Source: an uncultured Gammaproteobacteria bacterium
GTDB lineage: Bacteria; Patescibacteriota; Patescibacteriia; Magasanikbacterales; JBBTQS01
Assembly (NCBI GenBank): GCA_964627525.1
Contig: CAZVIA010000003.1
Coordinates: forward strand, 21,367 to 85,366
Length of the DNA stretch: 64,000 bases
Direction of reading: 5' to 3'
How positions within the stretch are numbered: the first letter of the stretch is position 1; each line of letters opens with the position of its first letter. The notes under the pieces are model-generated. The model saw only the letters and a list, made by a program, of their open reading frames with translations, had not been told where the DNA came from and did not search any database. Made by a program: the position numbers and the translations under genes. This document shows positions 8,205-33,891 of the stretch, in pieces.

Positions 8205-9998
8205 TCACGAAGCTTTTTTTCTGTTAGATCTGATGCGATCAACTTCAGTAAGTTGTTGTTTTCTTAAACGAATATTTTTTGGAGTAACTTCTAAGTATTC
8301 GTCTTTTGCCATTAACTCTAGGCCACGTTCCAAAGTAACAGGAAGTGGTGGTGTTAAATTTAGCGCATCATCAGCACCTGAAGAACGCATATTGGTTAGG
8401 TGCTTTCCTTTAATAGGATTAACAGTCATGTCCATTCCCTTAGATGTATTTCCAATAACCATTCCTTCATATACCTCAATATTTGGTCCAATATATAAAG
8501 CACCTCGTTCCTGTAAATTTGCCAATGAATAACCCAAAACTTTTCCAGTCTCACCAGAAATCATTGAGCCAACGTCTCGTTTTTCAATTTCACCAGCATA
8601 AGGTTTAAAACCAATCATTTCACTTGCAAGAATTCCTTCGCCATGAGTATCAATTACAAATTCATTTCTATAACCAAGTAATCCTCGAGTTGGAATTATA
8701 AAGTTTAAACGAGTGTGTGATTGTTCTGGCGCCATGTTTAACATTTTACCTTTACGTTTTGCAAGTTTTTCAATAATTGTTCCCACAAAACTTTCTGGAA
8801 CATCAATAGTCAACTCTTCAAAAGGTTCGTGCTTTGTTCCGTCAATTTCTTTAATAATAGCTTGTGGTTGTGATACTTGAACTTCGTATCCTTCGCGTCT
8901 CATGTTTTCAAGCAAAACAGCAACGTGTAATTCTCCACGTCCAAGAACAGCAAACTTATCTGGTTGAGATAAATCAACTTTAATTCCAACGTTTACTTCT
9001 AATTCTTTTTCAAGGCGAGCACGAATTTGTCGGCTAGTTACATATTTTCCATCTTGTCCTGCAAACGGAGAAGTATTAACCAAAAACTGTAATGAAATAG
9101 TTGGCTCATCAATAGTAATAGCTGGAAGAGATTCTTGTGTTTTGTCTTCACAAATTGTGTCTCCAATATAAATATTTGAAATACCTGCGATCATTGCAAT
9201 GTCTCCAGCAAAAATTGTATCAACTTCTTTGCGTTGCACACCTTCAAAAGTAAATAATTTTGTAATATTGCTTTTTGAAATTTCACCATTAATTTTTTTC
9301 ACCTGCACAGTGTCGCCTAAAGAAATTTTTCCTTGATAAACTCTACCAATTCCCATTCGCCCAAGATAATTATCATATGCTAGATTAAACGGTTGAAATG
9401 CAAATTTATCTTCAGTATTATTTGAAGCTGGCTCAACATGTTTGATTATAGTTTCCAAAAGTGGTGTTAAATTTTTGTGTTTATCATTAAGATTAAGAAC
9501 TGCTGTTCCGACTTTTGCATTTGAATATACTGTCACAAAATCAAGTTGTTCATCATTGGCACCAAGATCCATAAATAATTCTAAAACTCGGTCATGTGCC
9601 CAGTCTGGTCTAGCAGCTGGCTTATCAATTTTATTTAAAACCACAATTGGTTTCAACCCAAGTTCTAAAGATTTTTTCAAAACAAATTTTGTTTGAGGCA
9701 TTGGCCCTTCTTGAGCATCAACAATAAGTAAAACAGAATCAATTGATCGCAAAACACGTTCAACTTCAGATCCAAAATCAGCATGCCCAGGTGTGTCTAC
9801 AATGTTGATTTTTGTATCATTAAAAATCACTGAAGTGTTTTTTGAATAAATCGTAATACCACGCTCTTTTTCAAGATCGTTTGAATCCATGCTAATATTC
9901 TCATCAGTAACCATTCCAGTTTGACGCATCAAAGCATCAGTAAGGCGGGTTTTTCCATGATCAACATGTGCAATAATCGCAATGTTTCGAATTTCCAT
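8205..9998 (-). CDS. typA: translational GTPase TypA/BipA
   Basis: [19 protein letters not shown] and NKIDK G-motifs within a BipA-length protein. The likely start is the internal MEIRNIA at 9998; the ORF-track start at 10094 adds a non-conserved 32-aa extension. Confidence 0.85.
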
Positions 9999-10133
9999 AT
10001 TTAATAAATTCAAAACGCCCACTAGTAGGGGACGTGACTGAGTGAGTATATAGGATGTAGAGGTATTTGTCAAGCTCGCGTTCCTGGTTGCCAAGCTTGG
10101 TCTGTGTTAGTATGAAGTATATAATTTACTACT

Positions 10134-12397: not shown

Positions 12398-14764
12398 ATG
12401 AATAAAGAATTACCCAAAAAATACGATCACAAAACAACTGAAGATAAAATCAAAAAACTTTGGGAAAAGGAAAAAGTTTTTGAATTTAATTTTGATGAGA
12501 GCAAACCAATTTACGCAGTAGATACACCTCCTCCTTATGTTTCTGCAGATCATTTGCATTCAGGTCATATAATGTCCTATGCTCAAGCAGAATTTATTGT
12601 GCGGTACAAACGCATGAAAGGATTTAATGTTTTTTATCCAATGGGTTTTGATGATAATGGTTTGCCTACAGAAAGATTTGTGGAAAAAAAATATAATATA
12701 GATAAGTCAAAAGTTACAAAGCAAGAGTTTATAAAAATTTGTCTGGAAGAAACAAAAAAAGGTGCGCAAACTTATAAAGAATTGTGGACCAATTTAGGGA
12801 TTTCAGTTGATTGGTCAAAAACTTATAGCACAATTAATCCAACAGCGATAAAAGTTTCGCAGTGGTCGCTGATAGATTTGTTTCAAAAAGGTGCTTTGCA
12901 CAGAAGTGAAGCTCCTGTTTTGTGGTGTCCGCATTGTCAGACAGCTTTGGCTCAAGCAGATTTAGAAGACAAAGAAGATGAGTCAAAATTAAATTATATT
13001 ACTTTTAAATCAAGTGAGGGCGATGATCTTACTATTGCAACTTCTAGACCAGAGTTGTTGCCAGCTTGTGTTGCTTTGTATGTAAATCCAGAGGACAAGC
13101 GATTTAAACATTTGATTGGAAAAACTGCGACAGTGCCTTTGTTTGATTATGAGATTCCAATTAAGCCAAGTGAAAAAGTTGATATGGAATTTGGGACTGG
13201 TTTAATGATGGTTTGTACTTGGGGAGATCAGGAGGATTTAGATAAATGGCGCACAGATAAATTAGATACACGACCTTTGATTAAAGAAGATGGAACTTTG
13301 GGTGAAAATGGTGGTAAGTACAAAGGTATGTATTTGTTAAAAGCTAGAAAAGTTATTTTAGAGGATCTTGATGCGGCAAAATTTCTCACAAAACAAGAAG
13401 ACATCACACATTCTTTAAATGTTCATGAAAGATGTTCAACTGCAACAGAATTTGTTCTTAGTAAGCAGTGGTTTATAAAAATTGATGGGATGAAAGATGT
13501 TTGGTTAAAATATGGTGAACAATTAAATTGGTATCCAAAGTTTAAAGCCAAAGATTATGAGATGTGGGTAAATTCAATTAAATGGGATTGGTGTATTTCA
13601 AGACAGCGATATTATGGTGTGCCTTTTCCAATTTGGTATTGTAAAAAATGTGATGAGCCAGTTTTTGCTGAAGAAAAAGATTTGCCAATTCATCCAACTG
13701 AAAAAAATGCACCTGTTGATAAATGTTCAAAATGCGATTCCACAGATTTTGTTCCAGAAAACGATGTAATGGATACTTGGGCAACTTCTTCTTGCACTCC
13801 ATTTTTATTAAAGGAGTTGGTTGAGGAAAAAGCTAAGGATGCTGTTTTTCCAGTGACACTAAGACCAAATGCTTTTGAGATTATTAGGACTTGGGATTTT
13901 TATTCAATGGTAAAAAGTCATTATCATTTTGGAAAATTGCCTTTTAAGGATGTGATGATTTCAGGTCATGGTTTAGATGAAAAGGGTAAAAAAATATCTA
14001 AGCGTTTGGCTAATTATATTCCAGCCGACAAGTTGATTGAGGAGTTTGGTGCAGATGCAATTCGTTATTGGGCAACAGGTGCAACACTTGGTCGGAATTT
14101 GCGTTTTAATAAACAGGAAATTCAAAAAGGGAAAAAAACTGTTACAAAGTTGTGGAATGTTGCGCAGTTTTTGATTGTGAATAATGCTGAATTTAAAGCT
14201 GAAGAACAACCGGTTTTGGAGTATGCGGATTTGTGGATTTTTGAAGAATTAAACAAAACTATAAAAAGAGCCACAGCTTTGTTTGATAAATATGAATACT
14301 CTAAAGCGCGTGATGAAATTGATGTTTTCTTTTGGTCAAAATTTACTGACTATTACATGGAGTTTATTAAACATCGCTTGTCTGGAGATGATGATCAGTC
14401 AAAAGTTGGTGCGCAATATTGTTTTACAAAAGTTTTTGAAAATATTTTGAAAATGTATGCGCCAATTATGCCGTTTGTTACAGAGGAGTTGTTTCAGGTA
14501 TTTTTTAAAGATGTTAAAGGTTCTGAAAAAACTATTCACTTGTGCGCTTGGCCAGAGCAAATTGATGTTGAGGGTGGGGAATTAGACATTTCTGATTTTG
14601 ATAGTGCGATTGAGGCGATTAATGAGGTTAGGGGATTTAAGTCTGTAAATAATATGTCTTTGGGGACTGAATTACCAGAATATAAATTAAAAACCAAAGT
14701 TGATTTAGAAAAATACGGGGATTTTATTAAAAAAGCTATAAAAGTAGGGGGGTTGTTGGCTTAA
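12398..14764 (+). CDS. valS: valyl-tRNA synthetase (short form)
   Basis: Class I HIGH-like motif (HLHSGH) and KMSKS-like motif (KISKR). The editing-domain stretch NPEDKRFKHLIGK...DMEFGTG closely matches the ValS CP1 consensus NPEDPRYKDLIGK...DMEKGTG. Confidence 0.7.
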   Translation: MNKELPKKYDHKTTEDKIKKLWEKEKVFEFNFDESKPIYAVDTPPPYVSADHLHSGHIMSYAQAEFIVRYKRMKGFNVFYPMGFDDNGLPTERFVEKKYNIDKSKVTKQEFIKICLEETKKGAQTYKELWTNLGISVDWSKTYSTINPTAIKVSQWSLIDLFQKGALHRSEAPVLWCPHCQTALAQADLEDKEDESKLNYITFKSSEGDDLTIATSRPELLPACVALYVNPEDKRFKHLIGKTATVPLFDYEIPIKPSEKVDMEFGTGLMMVCTWGDQEDLDKWRTDKLDTRPLIKEDGTLGENGGKYKGMYLLKARKVILEDLDAAKFLTKQEDITHSLNVHERCSTATEFVLSKQWFIKIDGMKDVWLKYGEQLNWYPKFKAKDYEMWVNSIKWDWCISRQRYYGVPFPIWYCKKCDEPVFAEEKDLPIHPTEKNAPVDKCSKCDSTDFVPENDVMDTWATSSCTPFLLKELVEEKAKDAVFPVTLRPNAFEIIRTWDFYSMVKSHYHFGKLPFKDVMISGHGLDEKGKKISKRLANYIPADKLIEEFGADAIRYWATGATLGRNLRFNKQEIQKGKKTVTKLWNVAQFLIVNNAEFKAEEQPVLEYADLWIFEELNKTIKRATALFDKYEYSKARDEIDVFFWSKFTDYYMEFIKHRLSGDDDQSKVGAQYCFTKVFENILKMYAPIMPFVTEELFQVFFKDVKGSEKTIHLCAWPEQIDVEGGELDISDFDSAIEAINEVRGFKSVNNMSLGTELPEYKLKTKVDLEKYGDFIKKAIKVGGLLA

Positions 14765-14802
14765 TTTAGAGATTAATTTAGGGGGAAATTAAAGTGCAAA
14801 GC

Positions 14803-14831
14803 TTGACAAAGTCAGGCTTATGTGCTATATT
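14803..14831 (+). promoter_or_regulatory. near-consensus sigma70 promoter, TTGACA-17-TATATT
   Basis: TTGACA at 14803-14808 and TATATT at 14826-14831, upstream of the GGGGGTAAAG SD and the ATG at 14878. Confidence 0.5.
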
Positions 14832-14877
14832 TTTGTGTCTGGCAATTTTGCCAAGACCAAGGAAACTGGGGGTAAAG

Positions 14878-15381
14878 ATGAGGGAGAGAATGATATTTTT
14901 CTGTGCTATTTTTGTGCTTATGGCCGCTCTAGTCTATGTCTTTGGTTCCAAAAAGGATTCACCAGAAGTTCAAGAAACAACAGGTGAGCCAAGAAGTGAA
15001 TATAGTGTGGTATTTTGCGAAGTGGGTGAGTTTACAAGTGCTAGGCTTGAGATCACTGGGAATTACTTTCATGATTTTGTTGATCTAAAAGAAGGTAAGT
15101 CTTTTCCTTTGGGAATGGTTTGTGGTAAATGGCACCCCATCAAAGAGTGGGAAGGTCATTTCCAGGTCAATCTTATTCCAAGTAGAAAATACAGTCAGGT
15201 TTTGGTGTGCCTAAAGGGTTTCCCAAATAAAAATAACGTAGGAAGTACGTGTTATAAAGTGATTGATCGCGAGGGTGATTTTGGGATTGTCAGGACCATA
15301 GAGCTTAACATTGGGGAAGAAAAAAACCCTGATCTTTGGCCAGTTCAAAGTTTTGATATGGCGCCACCACCGTCTAACTAG
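14878..15381 (+). CDS. hypothetical exported or membrane-anchored protein, first gene of a GC-richer three-gene operon
   Basis: N-terminal signal-anchor MRERMIFFCAIFVLMAALVYVFG and a strong SD. GC is about 43-45% against about 33% in flanking genes. Confidence 0.5.
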   Translation: MRERMIFFCAIFVLMAALVYVFGSKKDSPEVQETTGEPRSEYSVVFCEVGEFTSARLEITGNYFHDFVDLKEGKSFPLGMVCGKWHPIKEWEGHFQVNLIPSRKYSQVLVCLKGFPNKNNVGSTCYKVIDREGDFGIVRTIELNIGEEKNPDLWPVQSFDMAPPPSN

Positions 15382-15410
15382 GCATAAGACACAGAAACAA
15401 GGAGGCCAAA

Positions 15411-15890
15411 ATGACATCCACAGAGAAAAAGCCTCAGGCTAAAGTTCTTGTGGTCAGTGTGTCAGGTTCCGTTCGGCAATTTTTGGGGAGTGTTGTAGAA
15501 CAAAGAGGTCGTGCTGTAACCAAAGTCCGAAATATTGCTTTTGCTGTTGAATTCATGTTGCATCAAGATGTTGATTTGGTGCTAGTTGATTTGCACCTAG
15601 AAGGCTCGCTGGATTTGATGGTTGAAGCCAAACAAAGACAACCAAATGTGTGTTTGTTGGGGATTGCGCGACATGATACTAATCCAGTGATTGTGTTAGG
15701 TGCATTGCAATTAGGTGGTATGCTAAACTGCCTGGTCATACCTGAAGATGGTCTGGGTGTTGTGTCAGAATTTACACGTGGTTTATTTGCAGATATCATA
15801 GATTCTGGTTTGGAATCAATCAAAGTTGCTTGCCCTCAGTGTAAGGGTGAGGGAACTGTACAGCGTTTTCCTGGTAAAGAAACACCCTAA
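15411..15890 (+). CDS. receiver-like (CheY-fold, non-canonical) domain protein with a C-terminal CxxCxGxG zinc-finger motif
   Basis: VLVVS...DLVLVDL receiver-like pattern lacking the acidic pair. The C-terminal CPQCKGEG is a DnaJ-type CxxCxGxG motif. AAGGAGG SD is present. Confidence 0.45.
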   Translation: MTSTEKKPQAKVLVVSVSGSVRQFLGSVVEQRGRAVTKVRNIAFAVEFMLHQDVDLVLVDLHLEGSLDLMVEAKQRQPNVCLLGIARHDTNPVIVLGALQLGGMLNCLVIPEDGLGVVSEFTRGLFADIIDSGLESIKVACPQCKGEGTVQRFPGKETP

Positions 15891-16041
15891 AGTTGAGAGT
15901 TGCCAACAACTACTTGAGAGCCACTAAGCTTAACGCGCTGGTGGTTTTTAAGTTGTCTAAAAAACTTGACACATCAACCCAACAGTGCTATTGTTTTTTG
16001 TTAAACAAATTTGTTTAACACATGCACGGGAGGGGGAGAAA

Positions 16042-17067
16042 ATGAGGATACTTGAGGTTTTTGCTGTCTATGTTATGGATGTAGTGTTAGCTGGAGTTGG
16101 TTGGGTAAAATGGTTTTACTCTAGGTGTAGGTTTTACATTAAAACCAATATTCTGAATCAAGTGATGTACAAGATTAATCCTAAGCAAAGTGTGCGAATG
16201 TACATGCAAGCAAGTCTGTTGTCTTTACAAAAAGAAAAAGATGAGTTTGCTACATTGGATTTGTTGTTTAGTTTGCCACCACATCTGTCTGATGTTTTGA
16301 CGAATTTTATGATGTACATTCAAGGTGCAAAGGAAATCATGCAATCTTGTGGCACATGGCCATTTGAAAATGAGGATGAGGAATTTAGTAGTACCAAGCT
16401 CAAGCTTATTTATTCCAAACTTGCAAAGTTTTTTCTTGAAAACAAGTGTAGGGGTTTTTTGGAATATGATGAAGCTTTGGATTACCAAGATGCTTTATTG
16501 TGCGAACAACTAAGGCAGTTGATCGGTGCAATGTCTGCAATAGGTAATCCTAGTGCTAGATTTGATCCTTGGTTTTATTTTGCAATGTGGTCTGAGGAAT
16601 TGGATCTTGTTGAGATTGCTTTTTGCAGGTCTTTAGGTAATTACTTGATTGCGCGTGCTAATAAGCAAAGAGCTAACATAAAAGATTATGTACCACCTGG
16701 TTTACCACCAGAATTTGTGGTCAAGTTGATTGAAATGGTTGCAGAGATTAATTTGATTGAGTTGAGTTTGTCAGAAGCAGATAGATTTTATGATGACATT
16801 GGAGTGGATCATAAGACAAGTGATTTCAATACAGTGTGTTTGTTCTTGGGTGGTTATCTGTGTCATCTTTGTGTGGGGGAGTCATTTCCAATACTAGATT
16901 GTGAAATTGGTTTGTTATACCGTGGTCAGATTACAAAGTACTTGGCACATGTCATGTATTCTCTTGTAACTACTGTGCCTGGTGATGAACCAGATCTTTT
17001 ATTTTTCTCTCCTATGGATTGGAAGGATCAAACTTTTGAATTTGAAAGTGAATGGGATGGTGAATAA
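16042..17067 (+). CDS. hypothetical acidic cytoplasmic protein of 341 aa, no recognisable domain
   Basis: GGGAGGGGGAG SD followed by an ATG at 16042. The ORF-track start at 15985 is likely an upstream extension. Confidence 0.5.
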   Translation: MRILEVFAVYVMDVVLAGVGWVKWFYSRCRFYIKTNILNQVMYKINPKQSVRMYMQASLLSLQKEKDEFATLDLLFSLPPHLSDVLTNFMMYIQGAKEIMQSCGTWPFENEDEEFSSTKLKLIYSKLAKFFLENKCRGFLEYDEALDYQDALLCEQLRQLIGAMSAIGNPSARFDPWFYFAMWSEELDLVEIAFCRSLGNYLIARANKQRANIKDYVPPGLPPEFVVKLIEMVAEINLIELSLSEADRFYDDIGVDHKTSDFNTVCLFLGGYLCHLCVGESFPILDCEIGLLYRGQITKYLAHVMYSLVTTVPGDEPDLLFFSPMDWKDQTFEFESEWDGE

Positions 17068-17151: not shown

Positions 17152-17189
17152 TGTTCACTATTGTGAAGAATGTTAGAGTTGAGTTTTGT
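17152..17189 (+). repeat. 38-bp junction repeat, copy 1 (TGTTCACTATTGTGAAGAATGTTAGAGTTGAGTTTTGT)
   Basis: One of six copies of a conserved repeat containing the palindrome TTCAC-TATT-GTGAA and a GATGTTAG(A/G)A core. Confidence 0.8.
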
Positions 17190-17383
17190 TTAGAATTGCA
17201 CTAATCTTTCTTAAATAATAAGATTTTGGTACAGTATATTTGTACTGAATATTTTATGTCTAAAAAATATCAAAAACAATCTGTTATTTATCAAGGTAAA
17301 ACTGGAGCTATTAAAGGAAAAACCCGAAAGATAAAGATAAGATGATTGGGTTGGTTTTGTTGTTGTTGAAGAAATAGTTTTAG

Positions 17384-17421
17384 TGTTCACTGTTGTGAAG
17401 GATGTTAGAACTGGGTTTTGT
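17384..17421 (+). repeat. 38-bp junction repeat, copy 2
   Basis: TGTTCACTGTTGTGAAGGATGTTAGAACTGGGTTTTGT. Confidence 0.8.
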
Positions 17422-18204: not shown

Positions 18205-19038
18205 ATGAAAATATTTGATGAAAACCAAAAATTAATTTTTAAATTACAGAAGTGTGGTTTAACAAAAAAACAGACCACTGTTTATCTTGGTCTTTTAGAA
18301 TTAGGAGGTGCTTTTCCTTCAAAAGTTTCTGATTATGTAAACATGAATAGATCAACTGTTTATAAAATTCTTAGTGATTTATCTATTAAAAATTTAATTG
18401 TTGAAACAAAAAAAAGAGGTAAGTGGTTTTATTGTGTTGAAAAACCAGAAAAACTATTGTCTCACAACAAACGCAGGATTAATATATTAAATAAAGAAAT
18501 TAAAAGTACTGAAAATGTTTTAAAGGATTTAAATAGTTTATTTTCTTTAAATTTACAAAAACCAAAAATTAAATTTTATGAGGGTGTTGAAGGGGTCTTA
18601 GAAGTGTTTCGTAGTCATCTGAATATTGAAAAGCCGTATGAAATGTTGGCTGTTTGTAATGCATCTAAGTTTTTAAAATTTATTCCTAATAAGGAATTAA
18701 AAAAATATTTGAAAGCAAAAGAAAAGTTGGAGATTACAACCAGGGGATTAGTGCCAGATACAAATACAGACATCAAATATAATAATAGTGCTTGTAAAAA
18801 TGCTGGGGTTAGCAAAAAAACATGGCCAAAGTTGAGGTTTGTTTCTTCAGAGGTTTTTAATATGGGAAGTGATATAACTGTTTATGGTGAGGATAAAATA
18901 TCAATTATAAATTTTACTAATGATAAATTGATAGGGATTATCATCGAAGATAAAACTATACACGATATGTTTAAAATGGTCTTTAATCTTGCGTGGAAAG
19001 GTGCTGAGAGGGGTTGTTTAAGATGTTCACTATTGTGA
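18205..19038 (+). CDS. TrmB-family-like HTH transcriptional regulator; paralogue of the gene at 24712
   Basis: The N-terminal LTKKQTTVYLGLLELG...STVYKILSDLSIKNLI winged-HTH pattern resembles TrmB. The last six codons and the stop lie inside repeat copy 3. Confidence 0.5.
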   Translation: MKIFDENQKLIFKLQKCGLTKKQTTVYLGLLELGGAFPSKVSDYVNMNRSTVYKILSDLSIKNLIVETKKRGKWFYCVEKPEKLLSHNKRRINILNKEIKSTENVLKDLNSLFSLNLQKPKIKFYEGVEGVLEVFRSHLNIEKPYEMLAVCNASKFLKFIPNKELKKYLKAKEKLEITTRGLVPDTNTDIKYNNSACKNAGVSKKTWPKLRFVSSEVFNMGSDITVYGEDKISIINFTNDKLIGIIIEDKTIHDMFKMVFNLAWKGAERGCLRCSLL

Positions 19039-19061
19039 AGGATGTTAGGATTGGGTTTTTT
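19024..19061 (+). repeat. 38-bp junction repeat, copy 3
   Basis: TGTTCACTATTGTGAAGGATGTTAGGATTGGGTTTTTT. Confidence 0.8.
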
Positions 19062-19125
19062 TAGATATTTTATAATTTCAGTCGGTATGGTAGTATAGAT
19101 TATATAAGTTTAATCAAATAAATAT

Positions 19126-19557
19126 ATGAATTTTCAAATAGAAAATTGTGGTTTTTGCCAATATAATAAAACCAAAAATACATTCAAAAAAATGAATTTT
19201 CAGCCAAGTGGAATTGAAGGTGGAGGTCAAAATAGCGCAGAAAGAGCTGGTTTTTGTAAAGATGGGAATAATCCAGAGACGTGCGAGACATGTAAAACAG
19301 AAAATGAAATTAAATTAATGGAAGCTCAAGCTGAAATTGATAATAGAGCAAAAATAGTGGACGCAGAAGCAGGTGAGTTAAGAGCACAAAGTATTAGGGC
19401 TACTGGTGAGCAAATGCATAGACAGATGGCAGATGATGCAGAAATGACTGCAAGGCAAATGGAGAGGTTTGGTTATGGAAAAGGTAAAGAAAGGTTAAAT
19501 ACATTTCATGACAAAAACGAAGAATTTTACGATCAAAGAGGTAGAAAAAAAGAATAA
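19126..19557 (+). CDS. hypothetical zinc-ribbon protein (CGFC...CETC) with a coiled-coil C-terminus, copy 1
   Basis: 143 aa with two CxxC pairs and an A/E/R-rich helical tail. Confidence 0.5.
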   Translation: MNFQIENCGFCQYNKTKNTFKKMNFQPSGIEGGGQNSAERAGFCKDGNNPETCETCKTENEIKLMEAQAEIDNRAKIVDAEAGELRAQSIRATGEQMHRQMADDAEMTARQMERFGYGKGKERLNTFHDKNEEFYDQRGRKKE

Positions 19558-19627
19558 TAGTTATATAAGGTTATTAAACAGAAGTTTTTTTGTTTGTGTT
19601 AATATAGTAAATATTTAATCAAAAACC

Positions 19628-20200
19628 ATGAGAGGAGAAAGAAGACCTGGAGAAGGTTCTAATGCGCGTGAGTTTAAAGCGCCCTCATCACTTTCTGAAG
19701 AAGATCATTATTCTACTTTGGGAGTTTCTAGAAATTCTAGCCCTGCTGAACTTAAAGCAGCTTATCGTGCGTTGGCACAAATCCATCATCCAGATAAAGG
19801 TGGTAATGAGGAAGATTTTAAACTTGTTGGTCAAGCTTTTGAAGTTCTTAGTGATCCAGGTCAGCGTGAGACATATGATCTTACTAAGTTTGCGCCTAGC
19901 AGTCCTGAACAACAAACATACGAAACAGGTGTTAGGCAGCCTACTGAAGAAGAAAAGAGAAGAATGGATGAGGAACTTGCCAAAGATAGAGCCAGAAGAG
20001 AAAAAGAGAGAAAAGAGAGAAAAGAAAAATGGAGAAAAGAACATCCAGAACTTGCAAGACAGCAAGATGAAATTGGGGCAGCTAAAAAAGAAGCAGTAAG
20101 CCAAGTAAAGGAAGATTTAGCCAAAGCAAAGGAAGATTTAGCAAAAATGAAAACTGATTTAAGAGCTAGGGCAGCTGAAATGAAAAGTAAACGGTTCTAA
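19628..20200 (+). CDS. J-domain (DnaJ-like) protein with a K/E-rich coiled-coil tail, copy 1
   Basis: DHYSTLGVSRNSSPAELKAAYRALAQIHHPDKGG...FKLVGQAFEVLSDPGQRETYD is a canonical J-domain with the HPD motif. Confidence 0.75.
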   Translation: MRGERRPGEGSNAREFKAPSSLSEEDHYSTLGVSRNSSPAELKAAYRALAQIHHPDKGGNEEDFKLVGQAFEVLSDPGQRETYDLTKFAPSSPEQQTYETGVRQPTEEEKRRMDEELAKDRARREKERKERKEKWRKEHPELARQQDEIGAAKKEAVSQVKEDLAKAKEDLAKMKTDLRARAAEMKSKRF

Positions 20201-20241
20201 TATTAACATTACCTATCTCAATTTTTACTTGAACTTAGTAG

Positions 20242-20279
20242 TGTTCACTATTGTGAAGGATGTTAGGATTGGGTTTTTT
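20242..20279 (+). repeat. 38-bp junction repeat, copy 4
   Basis: Identical to copy 3. Confidence 0.8.
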
Positions 20280-20343
20280 TAGATATTTTATAATTTCAGT
20301 CGGTATGGTAGTATAGATTATATAAGTTTAATCAAATAAATAT

Positions 20344-20775
20344 ATGAATTTTCAAATAGAAAATTGTGGTTTTTGCCAATATAATAAAACCAAAAATACA
20401 TTCAAAAAAATGAATTTTCAGCCAAGTGGAATTGAAGGTGGAGGTCAAAATAGCGCAGAAAGAGCTGGTTTTTGTAAAGATGGGAATAATCCAGAGACGT
20501 GCGAGACATGTAAAACAGAAAATGAAATTAAATTAATGGAAGCTCAAGCTGAAATTGATAATAGAGCAAAAATAGTGGACGCAGAAGCAGGTGAGTTAAG
20601 AGCACAAAGTATTAGGGCTACTGGTGAGCAAATGCATAGACAGATGGCAGATGATGCAGAAATGACTGCAAGGCAAATGGAGAGGTTTGGTTATGGAAAA
20701 GGTAAAGAAAGGTTAAATACATTTCATGACAAAAACGAAGAATTTTACGATCAAAGAGGTAGAAAAAAAGAATAA
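20344..20775 (+). CDS. hypothetical zinc-ribbon protein, copy 2 (identical)
   Basis: 100% identical duplicate. Confidence 0.5.
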   Translation: MNFQIENCGFCQYNKTKNTFKKMNFQPSGIEGGGQNSAERAGFCKDGNNPETCETCKTENEIKLMEAQAEIDNRAKIVDAEAGELRAQSIRATGEQMHRQMADDAEMTARQMERFGYGKGKERLNTFHDKNEEFYDQRGRKKE

Positions 20776-20845
20776 TAGTTATATAAGGTTATTAAACAGA
20801 AGTTTTTTTGTTTGTGTTAATATAGTAAATATTTAATCAAAAACC

Positions 20846-21418
20846 ATGAGAGGAGAAAGAAGACCTGGAGAAGGTTCTAATGCGCGTGAGTTTAAAGCGC
20901 CCTCATCACTTTCTGAAGAAGATCATTATTCTACTTTGGGAGTTTCTAGAAATTCTAGCCCTGCTGAACTTAAAGCAGCTTATCGTGCGTTGGCACAAAT
21001 CCATCATCCAGATAAAGGTGGTAATGAGGAAGATTTTAAACTTGTTGGTCAAGCTTTTGAAGTTCTTAGTGATCCAGGTCAGCGTGAGACATATGATCTT
21101 ACTAAGTTTGCGCCTAGCAGTCCTGAACAACAAACATACGAAACAGGTGTTAGGCAGCCTACTGAAGAAGAAAAGAGAAGAATGGATGAGGAACTTGCCA
21201 AAGATAGAGCCAGAAGAGAAAAAGAGAGAAAAGAGAGAAAAGAAAAATGGAGAAAAGAACATCCAGAACTTGCAAGACAGCAAGATGAAATTGGGGCAGC
21301 TAAAAAAGAAGCAGTAAGCCAAGTAAAGGAAGATTTAGCCAAAGCAAAGGAAGATTTAGCAAAAATGAAAACTGATTTAAGAGCTAGGGCAGCTGAAATG
21401 AAAAGTAAACGGTTCTAA
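20846..21418 (+). CDS. J-domain protein, copy 2 (identical)
   Basis: 100% identical duplicate. Confidence 0.75.
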   Translation: MRGERRPGEGSNAREFKAPSSLSEEDHYSTLGVSRNSSPAELKAAYRALAQIHHPDKGGNEEDFKLVGQAFEVLSDPGQRETYDLTKFAPSSPEQQTYETGVRQPTEEEKRRMDEELAKDRARREKERKERKEKWRKEHPELARQQDEIGAAKKEAVSQVKEDLAKAKEDLAKMKTDLRARAAEMKSKRF

Positions 21419-21459
21419 TATTAACATTACCTATCTCAATTTTTACTTGAACTTAGTAG

Positions 21460-21497
21460 TGTTCACTATTGTAGAGGATGTTAGAACTGGGTTTTAT
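21460..21497 (+). repeat. 38-bp junction repeat, copy 5 (variant TGTTCACTATTGTAGAGGATGTTAGAACTGGGTTTTAT)
   Basis: The palindrome is disrupted (GTAGA instead of GTGAA); this copy ends the duplicated block. Confidence 0.75.
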
Positions 21498-21539: not shown

Positions 21540-21700
21540 AATTTAATATAAACGTATCCAGAGAGTAGAGATGTTAAGGGAATTGACCCAAAGCTCTACC
21601 CGCAACCTATTTGTTTAGGTGCGAAATTCAACCCTATTGGGATAGATACTAGGAATCACTGGATGACGTCGCCCTTAAGGTGACTTTTTATTTTAGTTAT
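21540..21700 (+). promoter_or_regulatory. structured GC-richer leader ending in an intrinsic terminator (riboswitch- or attenuator-like)
   Basis: Several local hairpins (GTAGAG...CTCTAC; CGCAACCT...AGGTGCG). A terminator GUCGCC-cuuaa-GGUGAC followed by TTTTTATTTT lies at about 21665-21700, immediately upstream of the ORF at 21711. Confidence 0.35.
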
Positions 21701-21710
21701 CAAGGTCATC

Positions 21711-21962
21711 TTGTGGGCGACATCATCAAAAAACAGCCTTGCATCAATTCCGATGCAAGGTGTTGTTTTTTGTAAAAAGCCCAAAAAGAGAGTGACTATG
21801 GCCTGGGAAGGAATGAGAAAGTGTGTTTTCTGTCGCAGTGCTTGGTGTAAGTGTGGAAATCTGAGAAGAGAAAGAGAAAGGGTAAAGGCTGGTGGGAAGA
21901 GAAATAAATCAAGAACCTACACCAACAAGACTCCTCGGCTAGGGATTGTGAGGGTAAACTAA
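21711..21962 (+). CDS. small Cys- and K/R-rich hypothetical protein of 83 aa
   Basis: ORF with FCKKPKK...CVFCRSAWCKCGN. Weak evidence; could be non-coding. Confidence 0.25.
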   Translation: MWATSSKNSLASIPMQGVVFCKKPKKRVTMAWEGMRKCVFCRSAWCKCGNLRRERERVKAGGKRNKSRTYTNKTPRLGIVRVN

Positions 21963-22022: not shown

Positions 22023-22060
22023 ATGTTCACTATTGTGAAGGATGTTAGAACTGGGTTTTG
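22023..22060 (+). repeat. 38-bp junction repeat, copy 6
   Basis: TGTTCACTATTGTGAAGGATGTTAGAACTGGGTTTTGT; the last copy, abutting the ABC-transporter operon. Confidence 0.8.
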
Positions 22061-22118
22061 TGTACCCCATGGTGTGTAACACTATATTATTTAGATTGGG
22101 TATGTCATTTCTATTTTC

Positions 22119-24711: not shown

Positions 24712-25560
24712 GTGTCGTCGACATGCGACAACAAATATAAATTTATGCTTGAAAAGGTATTTATTAAATTAAATTTGGATGAAAAACATACTAGGGTTTA
24801 CTTAACACTTTTTGAAGAGAGTGTTTCGACTGCTGGTAAATTATCAAAGAAGTTAAGTATTCCTCGTTCTACTTTGTATGGTTTGCTATATGATTTAAAT
24901 AAAAAAGGCTTGGTAATTCAAAGTGAAAAACAAGGAATAAAAGTATGGCAGGCTGAATCACCTGATAAGTTAAAACATTTAATCAATAATGAAATTAATA
25001 ATTTGGAAGATTTAAATTTGAACTTATCTACATTAATTACTGAATTGAAAAACAAGGAAAAACAAGATTTTGTTAGTCCTAAATTTAGCTATTTTGAAGG
25101 TCCTGATGCTTTAAGGCAAATGCTTAAAGATGTGTTATGTTATAGAAATATCGATACTATTGCTTTTTGGCCAATTAGTGAAATGATAAAAATATTAGGA
25201 AAAGATTTTTTTATATATTCTAATAAGGAAAGAATTAAGCGTAACATTTCTGCAAAAGTACTTTGGCCAAATGATAGGCAGGTGGATTTAAAAGATAATG
25301 TATTTTTAGGAGTGGGGAATGATTTTAAAAGAGAAATTAGAATTGCTCCCAAAAACATAGATTGTTCTATGGGATATTGGGCATATGAAAACAAAGCAGC
25401 TTTTTTGTCTTCAAAAAAAGAAAGCTTTGGTTTTATTGTTGAAAGTGTTGAATTAAAGCAGTTGTTAGAAACTCAATTTAATGTTTTGTGGGAATTATCA
25501 AAGTCTATAAAACCACAAAAAGCTCACACACAAAAATTTATTAATGAGCTGAACTTGTAA
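24712..25560 (+). CDS. TrmB-family-like HTH regulator, paralogue of 18205-19038; divergent from the ABC operon
   Basis: Same architecture and alignable residues (RVYLTLFE...STLYGLLYDLNKKGLV...PDKLKHLIN). The true start may be the internal Met at about 24745. Confidence 0.5.
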   Translation: MSSTCDNKYKFMLEKVFIKLNLDEKHTRVYLTLFEESVSTAGKLSKKLSIPRSTLYGLLYDLNKKGLVIQSEKQGIKVWQAESPDKLKHLINNEINNLEDLNLNLSTLITELKNKEKQDFVSPKFSYFEGPDALRQMLKDVLCYRNIDTIAFWPISEMIKILGKDFFIYSNKERIKRNISAKVLWPNDRQVDLKDNVFLGVGNDFKREIRIAPKNIDCSMGYWAYENKAAFLSSKKESFGFIVESVELKQLLETQFNVLWELSKSIKPQKAHTQKFINELNL

Positions 25561-25830: not shown

Positions 25831-26901
25831 TTAACTATTACCTTTTTTAATATTACAAGGTCTACACAAGAGTTGTGCATTTGAAAGCACTGTTCTACCC
25901 CCTTTACTCCACGGATCTACGTGATCCATAGAAAGCTCTTCAGTGTAAAAGTATTTATTACAAATTTTGCATTTATATTTGCCTTCATTGTTAGGCTTTT
26001 GTTTTTTTAAGAATTCTTTTTTATCATCAATAGAAAATAGTCGTTTATCATCAACACTAATATTTTTCACTATAGCTTGGATAATGTCTTCGATCTCCTG
26101 TGCCTTATTAGTCAACTTTGCATCATCGCTTTTTAAATATTTTTTGACTCTTAAATTAATTTCATCTTTATTCTTTTTCCATATTACTGAATCTTTGATA
26201 TATTTTCTGGCCAAGTTGAAATAAATATCCAACTGGCCATAACTGTTAAATATATTACTTATAAATTTAATGTATTTAGTAATATCTTTTTGATCAGTAA
26301 CAAACGATTCATTTTGGTTTTGACTTACATAATCATTTATATTAGCTGTGTCTTTTGGTAAATTTCTTAAGATCATTAGTAGTTTTAATATTTTATATTG
26401 ATTTTTTCCACGACTATTAGAGCCCAACACTTTTATGGCATCTCTGTCTTGTTTTGCGTATGTAGATAACCCTCTTAAATATTCACCATAAAAAAGACCA
26501 TTTAACACTTCGTAGTTAGATAAAGGTACGCCTAAGGTGTTTATTCTTCTAAAGATTTCTCTTTTCAACTCCTCCTTTCCTTCACAAATTATTATTGAGA
26601 GTTCGGTTTTATTTATTATTTCTTGAGTTTTTTTGTCTGTCTGTTTCCAAAGTTTTTCCTCGAATAGTATGTCATTTTCAATGAATTTTTTTATTGCTTC
26701 AATTCTTTGTTTTCCATCTAAAACTTCTAGTATGCCCTTTTTATTTTTCCAAAAGTAAAAAGCTGGCAATGGAATTCCTTTAACAATACTGTCTACAACC
26801 AATATTTGCTTATTAGTGTCGTAGACAATTTCCCTTTGAAGTTCAATATCACTAATAATTTTGCCATCCCTTACTTCCTCGTATAAGTGTTTTATGTTCA
26901 T
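25831..26901 (-). CDS. DUF262 (ParB/GmrS-like) N-terminal domain fused to a C-terminal HNH nuclease; GmrSD-like putative restriction endonuclease
   Basis: LEVLDGKQRIEAI, the DGQQR motif of DUF262, at the N-terminus. The C-terminal CKICNKY...DHVDPWSKGG...CRPCNIKKG is an HNH motif. Confidence 0.65.
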   Translation of the reverse strand: MNIKHLYEEVRDGKIISDIELQREIVYDTNKQILVVDSIVKGIPLPAFYFWKNKKGILEVLDGKQRIEAIKKFIENDILFEEKLWKQTDKKTQEIINKTELSIIICEGKEELKREIFRRINTLGVPLSNYEVLNGLFYGEYLRGLSTYAKQDRDAIKVLGSNSRGKNQYKILKLLMILRNLPKDTANINDYVSQNQNESFVTDQKDITKYIKFISNIFNSYGQLDIYFNLARKYIKDSVIWKKNKDEINLRVKKYLKSDDAKLTNKAQEIEDIIQAIVKNISVDDKRLFSIDDKKEFLKKQKPNNEGKYKCKICNKYFYTEELSMDHVDPWSKGGRTVLSNAQLLCRPCNIKKGNS

Positions 26902-27905
26902 ATTTTTGGATTTTTAAACAAGTCCTTGTTTTTTATTATTATTCTTTCAAAAGGTGCTTTAAATGGCTTTCCGTCTTTTTCAATCCATAGTGTCGCTTTG
27001 TCTCCTTTAAATCTAATGGTTTTTTCAACCTGCACACCTTTACCTATAATTTCAAATTGGTCAGGGTTATATTTTGTTAAAAATGTTATTGGAACTCCCA
27101 TCTCGCCTTTATAATCATATGGTATGTTTTTTGTTTTGTTGACATCAATTCCATTGTAATTATAGTAATTTGGATATTTCTCGGAGTCGTAAGATTCGGT
27201 CAATATCATTCTGTCGTGACGATACGATACATCTAGGTTTGTATACCATTTACATGCTCTAGGCACAGAACCTTCTGGGTTTTTTGAAAGTAGTAGAGTA
27301 TTATCAATTAAACGAAAGCCAGTTAACTGCTTGGCGTAACCAAGCCACATTTTGTCGTCTTTTATGTGACTAAAGATTTCTTTATATGTTATGGCTGTTA
27401 AGGGGCCAATGACTAAAAAATTCATTTTATTTTTAAACATTGTGTCAATGAATTCTCTAAATTGACTAAATGGCGGGTTTGTTATTACTAAGTCATATTT
27501 TGAATAATCAACATCCTGAAATTTAACACCTTTACCTGTTGCAGGATTATATCCGCTGGCAGAAATAGATGATATGTCATAAGTGTCAGCGTGAGCCACT
27601 AGAAATTTAACAAAATTACATTTAATCAAAGACAACTCTTTTTCTATTTTCTTTTTTGATGCTTTAATATTTATTTTTTTTATTGTTCCTCCGCTGTCTA
27701 GTAGATTTGATGGGGTGATGTAACCTTCTTCTTTGAAAACAATTTCTTCTTCATAACTTTCATCCCAATCACAAGGGCATAATATTCTTTTACTTTTTAG
27801 TTGCTCCTTATATAAAGAAACTTCTTTTGATATGTCTTCGTATAAAGTGTAGAATTCATCGTCCTTGGCCTTATTTGCTTTGTATAGTGATTTTTTAGTG
27901 CCCAT
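26898..27905 (-). CDS. EcoRI-methylase-family N6-adenine DNA methyltransferase
   Basis: Collinear with M.EcoRI as recalled: DEFYT, CPCDWDE, DLVITNPPFSQFREF, KMWLG, CKWYTNLDV, GVPITFLTKYNPDQFEII. Overlaps the downstream nuclease gene by 4 bp. Confidence 0.8.
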   Translation of the reverse strand: MGTKKSLYKANKAKDDEFYTLYEDISKEVSLYKEQLKSKRILCPCDWDESYEEEIVFKEEGYITPSNLLDSGGTIKKINIKASKKKIEKELSLIKCNFVKFLVAHADTYDISSISASGYNPATGKGVKFQDVDYSKYDLVITNPPFSQFREFIDTMFKNKMNFLVIGPLTAITYKEIFSHIKDDKMWLGYAKQLTGFRLIDNTLLLSKNPEGSVPRACKWYTNLDVSYRHDRMILTESYDSEKYPNYYNYNGIDVNKTKNIPYDYKGEMGVPITFLTKYNPDQFEIIGKGVQVEKTIRFKGDKATLWIEKDGKPFKAPFERIIIKNKDLFKNPKI

Positions 27906-28159: not shown

Positions 28160-29296
28160 ATGAAAATTAAAATTATTATGGATATAACAGATATCGAAAA
28201 TGAATTGAATTCCTTGTATAAGAGTGCAAAGCGTTCTATTGAAAAAGGCTTGTCTTTTGATGTGTGCGTAGATATATACAAATATATAGATTTCATTGAT
28301 AAAAATGAAATATTGCATAAAATAGCAATTGATATTATATCTGTGCGTGAACCATTGTCGGATGAAAATAGGAATCTTGTGGAGAAAACAAAGTATTCGA
28401 TAGTAAAAAAATATGATTTTGCTAAAAAATTTATAGATAGAAGTAATGATTTAGAATTATTAAAACTTTCAAAACAGTTTGTTGAATATTCCGACGAGAG
28501 ACAAACAGGTCTTCCTAGGGAGTTTGATAGGTGTAGGGTAATGCAAAGTAGTCTACACTCAATCATGCGTAGACTTGAACAACTCAATTTAACAAATGAG
28601 ATTTTTCAAAATGAGAATTGGTTGTTTTTAAATAAAAAAATGGATGAGTGTTTTAAGTTGCTTTTTGAATCAGAGAGAAAATTATCCCTAGAAGCAATAC
28701 TAGAACCTTGGGGCGCGTTTATAAAATTAAATGATATGCACACAGGTATTGAAGAGTATAGAGTGGGCAAAAGAGAATACGATGATGGTTTTTATGCATC
28801 AAGTGTTTCTATAATCAGAGATGAGTTTGATGAATTAAGAAATAATATTAAAAGTAACTATAGGTGGGTATTTGTGGATGAGGATTGGGGCAGGATTTTA
28901 GACCTGGTTCAAAAAGAATTTGTAAAGAGATTAGAAAATCAAAAACTCTATTTTATTACTAAAAAAGGAAAAAAGTTTTTTTATTTAAACAAACTGATTA
29001 ATTTTGATTACAAAAACCCGCCTAGATATTTAAGGTCATTTATTGTTTTGTTTAAACTTCAACCATTTGGCGGTTCTGTGTCTTATGATGAGTGCCTATT
29101 AAAGGCAAAAGAATTAGGTTTTTCAGATATTTTAGAAAAAAAAGACTTGCAGAATGACTTAACAGTTTATTCATCCAGTCTCTACAGGAACACTGGTCTC
29201 CCAGCTAAAAATGAAAATAGTGTTTACTTGATTAAGACCGATAGGAAACAAAAAGGTTTTTTATTTAACAATTCCATCATCATAAATAACAACTAG
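28160..29296 (+). CDS. hypothetical protein of 378 aa on the mobile element
   Basis: Clean ORF; the antisense ORF 28081-28587 is rejected as non-coding. Confidence 0.5.
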   Translation: MKIKIIMDITDIENELNSLYKSAKRSIEKGLSFDVCVDIYKYIDFIDKNEILHKIAIDIISVREPLSDENRNLVEKTKYSIVKKYDFAKKFIDRSNDLELLKLSKQFVEYSDERQTGLPREFDRCRVMQSSLHSIMRRLEQLNLTNEIFQNENWLFLNKKMDECFKLLFESERKLSLEAILEPWGAFIKLNDMHTGIEEYRVGKREYDDGFYASSVSIIRDEFDELRNNIKSNYRWVFVDEDWGRILDLVQKEFVKRLENQKLYFITKKGKKFFYLNKLINFDYKNPPRYLRSFIVLFKLQPFGGSVSYDECLLKAKELGFSDILEKKDLQNDLTVYSSSLYRNTGLPAKNENSVYLIKTDRKQKGFLFNNSIIINNN

Positions 29297-29441
29297 TAAA
29301 GTCTTATTTACGCTAGTGGATGGCTATCAAAGTAGCTGTTTTTTTGTTTAATTTAAGCCTGTGTATGGGTGGTGTTAGTGTTTTGATAGCATAAGAAATA
29401 GGTTGGATACTAGAGATATTAATTATTAATATAATATTAAT

Positions 29442-29690
29442 ATGGAATATCTCAAAGAATCAGACCATTTCAAAACCACAGACATGTCTTTGGTTTCGAC
29501 ATTAATTTACTTAGGTTATCAAATAACTGCAATTGATGATCACAATCCATCAAAAGTGCATTTTGTAATAAAGCGAGATGGTAAAACAGATGAGGTGATT
29601 CAGTCTTACTGGAATAAAGAATTATCTGTTGAGCCACTTGCTTTTTTTAATTGTATTAAAGAAGTAAAAACAAGAATACGTAATACATAA
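29442..29690 (+). CDS. small hypothetical protein of 82 aa (DUF5659-like, phage-associated small protein)
   Basis: FKTTDMSLVSTLIYLGYQITAID...VHFVI pattern. Confidence 0.3.
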   Translation: MEYLKESDHFKTTDMSLVSTLIYLGYQITAIDDHNPSKVHFVIKRDGKTDEVIQSYWNKELSVEPLAFFNCIKEVKTRIRNT

Positions 29691-29856
29691 AGCATGTTAT
29701 CAGAAAAGTCAATTCAGAAATTTCAAGAACTGTACAAAAAACAGTTTGGGATTGGTTTGTCTGAAAAAGAATCTCAAGAAAAAGCAATACAATTACTTGA
29801 GTTATTTAAAAAAGTTTACAAGCCAATAACAATTAGAAAAATTAGATTAAAATTAT

Positions 29857-31146
29857 ATGACAATAAATAAATTTGAACCTTTGGGTTCAGAAGAGCTTGT
29901 AAAAATACTAGGCACCACAATAAAGCAAGATGAGACAAACAAAGTTGTAACTTTCTTATGCCAGCTTTCTGCCTATGGAGCTGACAATCAATTTAATATT
30001 TCATTCAATGCACCTAGTAGTACTGGTAAGAGTTTTATCCCAACTGAGGTTGCAAGGCTTTTTCCAAAAGAAGATGTAGTTAAAATAGCTTATTGTTCTC
30101 CAACAGCTTTTTTCCACGACGTTGGTAGAGCAGATGAGAAATCAAAAGGTAAAATAATTGTTGATTTATCAAGAAAAATAATGATCTTTTTAGATCAGCC
30201 ACACATGCAACTATTAGAAAGGTTGAGACCATTACTTTCACATGATGAAAAGGAAATAAATATAAAAATTACAGATAAATCTCAGAAGCAGGGTCTGAGA
30301 ACCAAAAACGTAATTATCAGAGGTTATCCGTCCGTGATTTTTTGTACCGCAGGGCTACGAATCGACGAGCAAGAAGCCACACGTTTTCTTTTGCTCAGTC
30401 CAGAAATTAATGAAGAAAAAATACGCCAATCTATTGAAGAAACAATAAAGAAGGAAGAGGACGATGATTATTACAGAAAAGTCCTTGAAGGTGATCCAGA
30501 CAGGGTGTTGCTAATGGAGCGAATAGTTGCAATAAAAGAAATGGGGATTGAGAATATAAAACTACACAATGCGAGTTCTCTAAAAGAACAATACTTGTCA
30601 AAAAATAAAAAATTACTCCCAAGACATCAAAGAGACATAAAGCGTTTTATTTCAATTGTTAAGTGTTTTGCTTTGCTTAATTGTTGGTGGAGAAGTGTTG
30701 AGGGTAAGACAATATTAACAAGCGAGGATGATGTTAAGGAGGCTTTCAAAATTTGGGATGTGCTTTCAATTAGTCAGAGTCATAATTTACCACCATATAT
30801 ATTCCGTTTCTATAACGACGTGCTGATTACTGCGTGGGATGAGTTAGGTCTTAAAAACAAAGATGAGATGTTGGTTGATATAGACTCGAAGGGATTAACA
30901 ATGAAGCAAATATTAGATAAACATTATAAAGTTTATGGAAGAATGTTGGATGCATATCAATTAAGAACACAAATACTTCCGATGCTGGAAACTTCTGGCT
31001 TGATAATTCGTGAAAAAGATGAAAGTGATAAGCGTAAAAATCTGATTTGCCCGAGTTCTATTTATTTTCAACAAAACAGTGTTGTACTGGCTGATAATGA
31101 GGAAGAGATTGAAGAATGTAATTCATTAGATAATATAGTGTTTTAA
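29857..31146 (+). CDS. P-loop NTPase, phage/plasmid replication-associated (primase-helicase or VirE-like), putative
   Basis: Walker A NAPSSTGKSF and Walker B IMIFLDQ; mobile-element context. Confidence 0.4.
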   Translation: MTINKFEPLGSEELVKILGTTIKQDETNKVVTFLCQLSAYGADNQFNISFNAPSSTGKSFIPTEVARLFPKEDVVKIAYCSPTAFFHDVGRADEKSKGKIIVDLSRKIMIFLDQPHMQLLERLRPLLSHDEKEINIKITDKSQKQGLRTKNVIIRGYPSVIFCTAGLRIDEQEATRFLLLSPEINEEKIRQSIEETIKKEEDDDYYRKVLEGDPDRVLLMERIVAIKEMGIENIKLHNASSLKEQYLSKNKKLLPRHQRDIKRFISIVKCFALLNCWWRSVEGKTILTSEDDVKEAFKIWDVLSISQSHNLPPYIFRFYNDVLITAWDELGLKNKDEMLVDIDSKGLTMKQILDKHYKVYGRMLDAYQLRTQILPMLETSGLIIREKDESDKRKNLICPSSIYFQQNSVVLADNEEEIEECNSLDNIVF

Positions 31147-31149
31147 AGG

Positions 31150-31758: not shown

Positions 31759-31759
31759 T

Positions 31760-33832: not shown

Positions 33833-33891
33833 GATTTGAACCTAGATTGGCGGTACCAGAAACCGCAGTCCTACCATTAGACGATCCCCGA
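33818..33891 (-). tRNA. tRNA-Gln (anticodon CUG)
   Basis: Cloverleaf with acceptor TCGGGGA/TCCCCGA, a 3-bp D stem, anticodon loop TTCTGGT, T-arm CTAGG-TTCAAAT-CCTAG, and an encoded CCA. Overlaps the recombinase 3' end by 15 nt. Confidence 0.85.

Follow-up and report, generated by a model that had tools for sequence, protein, structure and literature searches.

The subject of this analysis is a pair of identical genes in a 64,000-nucleotide stretch of contig CAZVIA010000003.1 (hereafter the window, whose numbering is used throughout), each encoding a 190-aa protein with a complete N-terminal J-domain and a long, charged helical tail. The protein is a class C, or J-domain-only, J-domain protein (JDP), and we give about even chances to its being a lineage-specific co-chaperone of the bacterium's own DnaK/Hsp70. 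The gene belongs to a tandemly duplicated cassette bounded by copies of a 38-nt direct repeat (Table 1), and the array of these repeats is the most interesting loose end of the analysis, a context of more general interest than the J protein itself.

A J-domain-only protein with a charged helical tail

The Pfam DnaJ profile (PF00226) is matched in full (positions 1-63 of 63) by residues 26-84 of the 190-aa protein, and the score of 69.5 bits is far above the cut-off, which lies at 27.8 (E=2.7e-19). The HPD motif is formed by H54-P55-D56, which lie in the loop between helices II (residues 39-53) and III (residues 61-75) of the AlphaFold2 (AF2) model and align with the HPD of all 16 J proteins used for comparison (16/16). 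These three residues are invariant in that alignment together with Y28, L31, G32, R47, F64, A70 and L74. The J-domain (residues 27-88) is modeled with a predicted local distance difference test score (pLDDT) of about 96, and a Foldseek search of the Protein Data Bank (PDB) with the model returned J-domains exclusively, at a root-mean-square deviation (rmsd) of 1.3-2 Å (4j7z, 2och and 5nro_B). Among these matches are the DnaJ of Thermus thermophilus (4j7z, 1.3 Å over 64 columns) and the DnaK-bound J-domain of Escherichia coli DnaJ (5nro_B). The corresponding search by sequence found 54 J-domain sequences in the PDB at E<=1e-3. An above-threshold match to the full domain, an HPD in the II-III loop and a four-helix fold are thus all present, and the textbook J-domain described in an initial annotation of the window, which had been made from the sequence alone, is borne out.

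Outside of the J-domain the protein resembles neither class A nor class B J proteins. No match to DnaJ_C (PF01556) or to the DnaJ zinc finger (PF00684) was found in Pfam at E<=0.1, and reading of the sequence gave no glycine/phenylalanine-rich (G/F) stretch and no Cys. A class A DnaJ has a G/F region, four CxxCxGxG repeats and DnaJ_C, and a class B protein of the CbpA/DnaJB type has a G/F region and a DnaJ_C beta-sandwich; the 190-aa protein falls outside of both, with a C-terminus that is all-helical in the model. Since DnaJ_C, zinc finger and G/F stretch are all lacking, the protein is a class C JDP by exclusion.

The tail is set off from the J-domain by a disordered linker of 18 residues (89-106, pLDDT <50) and consists of two helices (107-138 and 140-189) predicted with a pLDDT of about 95. 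Its composition is extreme, as 60% of the last 84 residues are charged (28 K+R, 22 D+E), in agreement with the long K/E-rich coiled coil given in the initial annotation. An ER/K-rich helix is followed by the terminal heptads KEDLAKA, KEDLAKM and KTDLRAR (Leu/Ala), which are encoded by a 21-nt repeat within the gene (20086-20161), and this end of the tail is probably a short coiled coil.

A cassette duplicated in tandem

The J gene and a gene for a 143-aa ORFan (a protein without recognizable relatives) upstream of it lie on the same strand, 70 nt apart, and together make up one unit of 1218 bp that occurs twice. Positions 19024-20254 and 20242-21472 are exactly identical over 1231 nt at an offset of 1218, which places the duplication junction within 13 nt common to the flanking copies of the 38-nt repeat. 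The duplicated accessory cassette proposed in the initial annotation is therefore present as an exact tandem copy. This arrangement probably arose when two copies of the 38-nt repeat recombined unequally, which would have doubled the gene dose.

Table 1. Features of the J-domain cassette, the 38-nt repeat array and the CPQCKGEG protein in window coordinates.
Feature	Position	Strand	Evidence
J-domain protein copy 1, 190 aa, class C JDP	19628..20200	+	ORF, Pfam DnaJ, AF2 model, Foldseek matches to J-domains
J-domain, residues 26-84 (HPD codons 19787-19795)	19703..19879	+	Pfam stretch, invariant columns
C-terminal charged helical region, residues 107-189	19946..20194	+	AF2 helices, charge count, repeat family D3
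J-domain protein copy 2, 100% identical	20846..21418	+	ORF, identity run
143-aa ORFan partner copy 1; two CxxC pairs (8-11, 53-56) ahead of long helices	19126..19557	+	ORF
143-aa ORFan partner copy 2	20344..20775	+	ORF, identity run
Tandem duplication unit 1, 1218 bp	19024..20241	+	Exact identity run
Tandem duplication unit 2	20242..21459	+	Exact identity run
159-aa ORFan, weak pseudo-receiver and one CPQCKGEG (15831-15854)	15411..15890	+	
38-nt repeat copy 1 (4 mismatches to reference copy at 22024)	17152..17189	+	
38-nt repeat copy 2	17384..17421	+	
38-nt repeat copy 3, left edge of J cassette; TrmB ORF ends inside	19024..19061	+	
38-nt repeat copy 4, duplication junction	20242..20279	+	
38-nt repeat copy 5, right edge of J cassette 2	21460..21497	+	
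38-nt repeat copy 6, array end, adjoins 3' end of ABC permease gene	22024..22061	+	
ORF, open reading frame; ABC, ATP-binding cassette.

The 143-aa protein has no match in Pfam, PHROG or PADLOC, and a full HMMER scan of 1.84 billion representatives returned no relative other than itself. Its AF2 model, calculated from the single sequence, is of low confidence (mean pLDDT 62), with helices at 59-114 and 117-138.

Metagenome contigs that stem from the same population match the window at essentially 100% identity, yet each contains the cassette only once, which is the usual outcome of short-read assembly on repeats of this kind. The J protein is 100% conserved with an intact ORF in contigs of at least 10 metagenome assemblies. 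Samples containing this population include JGI 3300009405, 3300009375, 3300009106 and 3300009374 and ENA ERZ23499038, ERZ23499059 and ERZ23499079. One of the contigs (L010, seen in 3 samples) corresponds exactly to 19024-20254, as would a unitig produced by a looped assembly graph; from this exact match we infer that the unit-to-unit junction is real in nature and no artefact of this assembly, with the true copy number uncertain.

Distribution of the J protein

A search of 5.8 billion protein clusters with the J protein gave a single match over the full length, an identical sequence from the same population; all other matches are confined to the J-domain, covering 26-48% of the query. The initial annotation had noted that ubiquitous syntenic orthologues would make the protein ordinary core content. 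None were found, and on this distribution the cassette is to be classed as accessory.

The lack of homologues could also mean that the protein does nothing at all, i.e., that the J-domain of a duplicated dnaJ or cbpA was fused to low-complexity sequence and persists as functionless evolutionary flotsam, with its copy number set by repeat instability. This would suit the low-complexity tail with its internal 21-nt repeat, as well as the tiny ORFs of doubtful reality in the surrounding units. We nevertheless consider it quite unlikely, as the J-domain retains every invariant residue, the reading frame is unbroken in either cassette copy and in all metagenome contigs, and the tail is modeled as confident helices with a regular heptad rather than as disorder.

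Relation to known J proteins and proposed role

Class C JDPs are a heterogeneous group that ranges from 54 to >1000 aa and is widespread in bacteria (PMC8215388; PMC10410713), with four members in E. coli (PMC8215388). The view taken in the initial annotation, that J-domain-only proteins are typical of eukaryotes and of some phages and symbiont effectors, does not agree with how common they are in bacteria (PMC8215388, PMC6715715), and the 190-aa protein is best seen as an orphan addition to a well-known kind, one of thousands of uncharacterized class C JDPs.

An instructive comparison is with AtcJ of Shewanella oneidensis, a short JDP encoded in the atcJABC operon whose C-terminal extension binds an operon-encoded partner (PMC6715715). 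Both proteins are small, with an N-terminal J-domain and an extension unrelated to DnaJ, without G/F region, zinc finger or C-terminal substrate-binding domain, and both are encoded together with small proteins whose function is unknown. They show no similarity outside of the J-domain, however, and the AtcJ extension comprises 21 aa as opposed to a charged helix of ~100 aa here; AtcJ is also conserved across a genus, whereas the 190-aa protein is an orphan known from sequence. DjlA, DjlB, DjlC and HscB of E. coli likewise combine a J-domain bearing HPD with a specialized targeting region. The three Djl proteins are membrane proteins, unlike the 190-aa protein, which has no transmembrane segment and also lacks the HSCB_C domain of HscB, and the J-domain of DjlA is C-terminal where that of the 190-aa protein is N-terminal. 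The J-domain sequences found to be most similar are those of class B CbpA-like proteins encoded next to ClpB (P0003-P0011), with 54-61% identity over 59-68 residues and an identical DHYSTLGVSR; these proteins carry the DnaJ_C substrate-binding domain that is missing here, and the matches cover 31-36% of the query.

The role that we propose follows from these comparisons. DnaK is encoded in 98.9% of bacterial genomes (PMC11019930), which favors the bacterium's own DnaK as the partner. The J-domain would dock on ATP-bound DnaK and trigger hydrolysis, and the helical tail would either dimerize or bind a specific partner, for which the 143-aa neighbor is the obvious first candidate. In this way the tail may steer DnaK to a single lineage-specific client or site, by analogy with AtcJ, DjlA and HscB. 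The site of Hsp70 action is set by JDPs. A JDP peculiar to one lineage, in a bacterium with a reduced genome, would point to a process worthy of dedicated chaperone power, with the ORFan neighbor as the prime candidate for a client or adaptor.

Several observations weigh against this proposal. The initial annotation had recommended a check for dnaK, and no dnaK, grpE or dnaJ is found in the window and 10 kb on each side (84 kb); this absence says little as the size of the genome is unknown, but the partner Hsp70 is an assumption, and this is the main gap. Helix II shares only two basic residues with E. coli DnaJ (K43 and R47), so the affinity for DnaK could be low. The interaction between the J protein and its 143-aa neighbor is pure inference, the model of the neighbor is poor, and the two proteins have no sequence similarity in common. 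The surroundings of the gene are accessory, cassette-like and rich in ORFans, and since there are no homologues, purifying selection on the J protein is not measurable. Finally, the closest J-domains found (59-61% identity over 59 residues) are encoded beside ClpB in contigs resembling those of jumbo phages, one of them 336 kb long.

Phage-derived factor or secreted effector

This last point leads to the possibility, also raised in the initial annotation, that the J protein is of phage origin. In the characterized phage case, Rki of the T4-like phage RB43 binds DnaK and stabilizes sigma32 (PMC3486835), and the cassette could by this precedent be left over from, or carried by, a mobile element or phage, with the J protein acting on DnaK for the benefit of the element. 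IMG/VR, INPHARED and BFVD contain many J-domain-only proteins of ~190-230 aa. Rki and the JDPs of phages and giant viruses (IMG/VR L091 and L092; BFVD) resemble the 190-aa protein in being of the ORFan type, in their length, in starting with the J-domain and continuing in helices, and in sharing the short-loop helix II-III turn HHPDKGG(N/D)EE.F. An ORFan partner without orthologues, the recent duplication bounded by repeats, and a surrounding accessory stretch that holds a GmrSD/methylase pair, a serine recombinase at tRNA-Gln and a VirD4-like ATPase would all be in keeping with such an element, as would the phage-like setting of the closest J-domains.

We regard this explanation as unlikely, though not negligible. 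The similarity to viral proteins ends with the J-domain throughout, neither the 143-aa partner nor the 38-nt repeat has a viral match, and the genomic context is not viral: the phage genes that would be expected beside a prophage- or phage-encoded JDP of the Rki kind are missing here, and a PHROG scan of the neighbors matched only the unrelated 159-aa protein described below, to two families of unknown function. The first protein search picks its candidates by shared 5-residue words, so the phage matches are a biased sample, and ~60% identity is ordinary between J-domains. The gene itself also looks native, because its GC content at third codon positions (GC3) is host-like (0.199, compared with 0.17-0.25 in housekeeping genes) and its A/T-rich leader is without a Shine-Dalgarno sequence, like those of TrmB, valyl-tRNA synthetase (ValRS), DnaG and GreA. 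In this it differs from the foreign-looking operon at 14794-17067. In a PADLOC search for defense systems, neither the cassette proteins nor the nearby ORFs of 173, 195, 159 and 360 aa had a match, and the TrmB regulator had only a weak one to a CARF model (E=0.00098).

The initial annotation had further suggested an effector that hijacks host chaperones. Episymbiosis is known in Patescibacteria, and in a Patescibacteria-like organism a strain-specific, duplicated J protein might be secreted or injected so as to recruit the Hsp70 of the episymbiont's host cell, in the manner of the type III effector HopI1 of Pseudomonas syringae; type IV pilus and VirD4-like genes are present in the window. 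The protein has no signal peptide, however, and by sequence and composition its N-terminus is charged, without a hydrophobic signal. Secretion-system genes are absent from the immediate vicinity of the J gene, the VirD4-like gene lying 15 kb off, and no homology to known effectors was found. With no positive evidence for it, this idea is very improbable, and a co-chaperone of the bacterium's own DnaK is the reading that we retain.

The 38-nt direct repeat array

The 38-nt repeat (TGTTCACTATTGTGAAGGATGTTAGAACTGGGTTTTGT) is present in six copies, all on the + strand, where none would be expected by chance, and its conservation drops sharply at either end. There is no further copy in the window or 10 kb on each side. 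It has no matches in GTDB representative genomes or IMG/VR, and the full pattern has none in the metagenome contigs of the Joint Genome Institute (JGI); a looser pattern gave 9 single matches in the JGI contigs, without extension, which we take as chance, and this contig collection evidently lacks the samples in which the genome occurs.

Between the repeats lie five units of 0.2-1.6 kb, filled mostly with ORFans. The first has as its sole ORF a 29-codon Lys-rich frame, MSKKYQKQSVIYQGKTGAIKGKTRKIKIR, at 17256-17345 (+). The second holds a divergent pair made up of the 173-aa ORFan and a TrmB-family regulator that runs five codons into the repeat, the third and fourth are the two J cassettes, and the fifth contains a riboswitch-like element (SAM-I) and a 69-codon Cys/Arg-rich ORF.

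The start of the repeat precedes the first ATG by 102-104 nt in two independent units and precedes the riboswitch by 91 nt, a spacing compatible with a shared upstream operator. The endpoint of the duplication is compatible with the alternative of a recombination site, in which case the repeat would add one more way for Patescibacteria to vary their accessory genes. The array resembles integron arrays in its short, mostly ORFan units with a conserved site in direct orientation between all of them, one unit of which has been duplicated with the junction in the site. It differs from them in that the repeat lacks the attC stem, there is no tyrosine integrase, and one unit holds two divergent genes. 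A far-reaching extension of this resemblance, which we consider very doubtful, is that the repeats would be the recombination sites of a non-integron system that captures, shuffles and amplifies small ORFan units in an uncultured Patescibacteria lineage. The amplified J cassette would be its adaptive payload, with a zinc-ribbon/helix adaptor and the J protein acting as a two-protein module to redirect an Hsp70, perhaps the one of a host cell on which the bacterium lives.

Other known repeat types were considered and rejected. The repeat folds into just a 5-bp hairpin with a 4-nt loop, with z-scores that are mostly insignificant; it thus has no long hairpin and no R''/L''-L'/R' stem of an attC site, and the Pfam results for the window genes include no tyrosine integrase. 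Its size (36-38 nt) and 5-bp/4-nt hairpin recall the type V repeats of CRISPR (clustered regularly interspaced short palindromic repeats) systems, but the would-be spacers are 0.2-1.6 kb long and contain genes, no cas gene was seen, and Rfam, the CRISPR-DR families included, gave no match. A dif site as used by integrative mobile elements exploiting Xer (IMEX) was rejected because the cumulative GC skew climbs monotonically here, and so shows no replication terminus.

The riboswitch-like element of the fifth unit is a full-length but sub-threshold Rfam match to the S-adenosylmethionine (SAM) SAM-I or S-box riboswitch at 21551-21652 (+) (32.2 bits against a gathering threshold of 44.4, E=2e-4). 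It is followed on its 3' side by a terminator-like hairpin (21668-21684) and then by the 69-codon ORF, which is rich in Cys, Arg and Lys (21753-21962), and it adjoins no recognizable methionine or SAM gene.

Two divergent TrmB-family regulators (18205-19038 (+) and 24712-25560 (+), 23% identical to each other) flank the J cassettes and an ABC transporter. The first of them, whose frame extends into the 38-nt repeat before it stops, is for that reason longer than most of its closest homologues (277 aa compared with 262-270 aa). The TrmB homologues lie in unrelated contexts, with no synteny to this locus.

The CPQCKGEG protein and its operon

A separate protein of 159 aa, encoded 3.7 kb away from the J gene, does carry the sequence CPQCKGEG near its end, as the initial annotation had stated, in a single copy 13 residues before the stop codon. 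The number of C..C.G.G motifs expected is ~0.015 in the coding sequence of the window, or ~0.26 per Mb of genome. DnaJ uses two CxxCxGxG repeats per zinc, four in all. With one repeat where two are needed for each zinc, the 159-aa protein cannot form a DnaJ-type zinc center, and Pfam gives no PF00684 match; the motif that had been read as a DnaJ-type zinc-finger repeat is real, without making up a DnaJ-type zinc-finger domain. As far as the data go, the association of CPQCKGEG with the J protein is coincidental.

The degenerate receiver fold ascribed to the same protein fares somewhat better. Its Pfam Response_reg match (PF00072) of 21.8 bits stays below the cut-off of 30.2 (E=2e-4), and the best match to a solved structure is the ArcA receiver (1xhe, E=0.0019), with receivers making up nearly all of 21 weak PDB matches. 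The acidic pocket has been changed to VSVSGS, with Ser and Val in place of the acidic pair, while the Asp at the phospho-acceptor position is kept (VDL instead of MDI). The protein is itself an ORFan, with no homologues found from which to build a profile, and the sequence resemblance to receivers appears real but weak.

The gene is the second in a unit of three ORFan genes at 14794-17067 (+), which encode a 195-aa protein whose N-terminus carries a membrane anchor, the 159-aa pseudo-receiver and a 360-aa protein. The GC3 of this unit is 0.32-0.37 and its Shine-Dalgarno sequence (AAGGAGG) is strong, whereas host genes have a GC3 of ~0.2 and no such sequence; by these features the unit looks foreign or recently acquired.

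Genomic surroundings

The genes of the window are bacterial, including those for GreA, BipA, DnaX, NAD-dependent ligase, DnaG, sigma-70, Lgt and PilM with type IV pilus components; TGA is used as a stop codon and the GC content is ~33%. The GTDB species representatives include no close relative. The named relatives of the TrmB regulator belong to Patescibacteria (Kuenenbacteria and Taylorbacteria, <=48% identity), so that the small-genome, episymbiont-like bacterium supposed in the initial annotation is plausible as far as the phylum is concerned.

The ValRS gene near the cassette region (12398-14764 (+)) is of archaeal type, with best matches among GTDB representatives to DPANN archaea (42-48%) and bacterial ones of at most ~29%. 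The archaeal origin at which these matches hint is ruled out by the bacterial genes listed above. Two independent metagenome contigs (L125 and L126) both end at ~13281 inside the ValRS gene, which hints at a strain-level breakpoint.

Traces of mobile and defense elements follow on the other side of the cassette. A GmrSD/HNH nuclease with an EcoRI-like methylase is encoded at 25831-27905 (-), and after several ORFans (28160-32095) comes a large serine recombinase (32225-33832 (+)) whose 3' end overlaps a tRNA-Gln gene (33818-33891 (-)). The VirD4/TraG-like coupling ATPase is encoded at 36481-39057 (-).

At the beginning of the window, the gene for an [FeFe]-hydrogenase large subunit adjoins one for a NuoF-like flavoprotein (251-1966 (+), and 9025-10014 of the upstream locus L129), a pairing that on sequence grounds would indicate a fermentative, anaerobic lifestyle.

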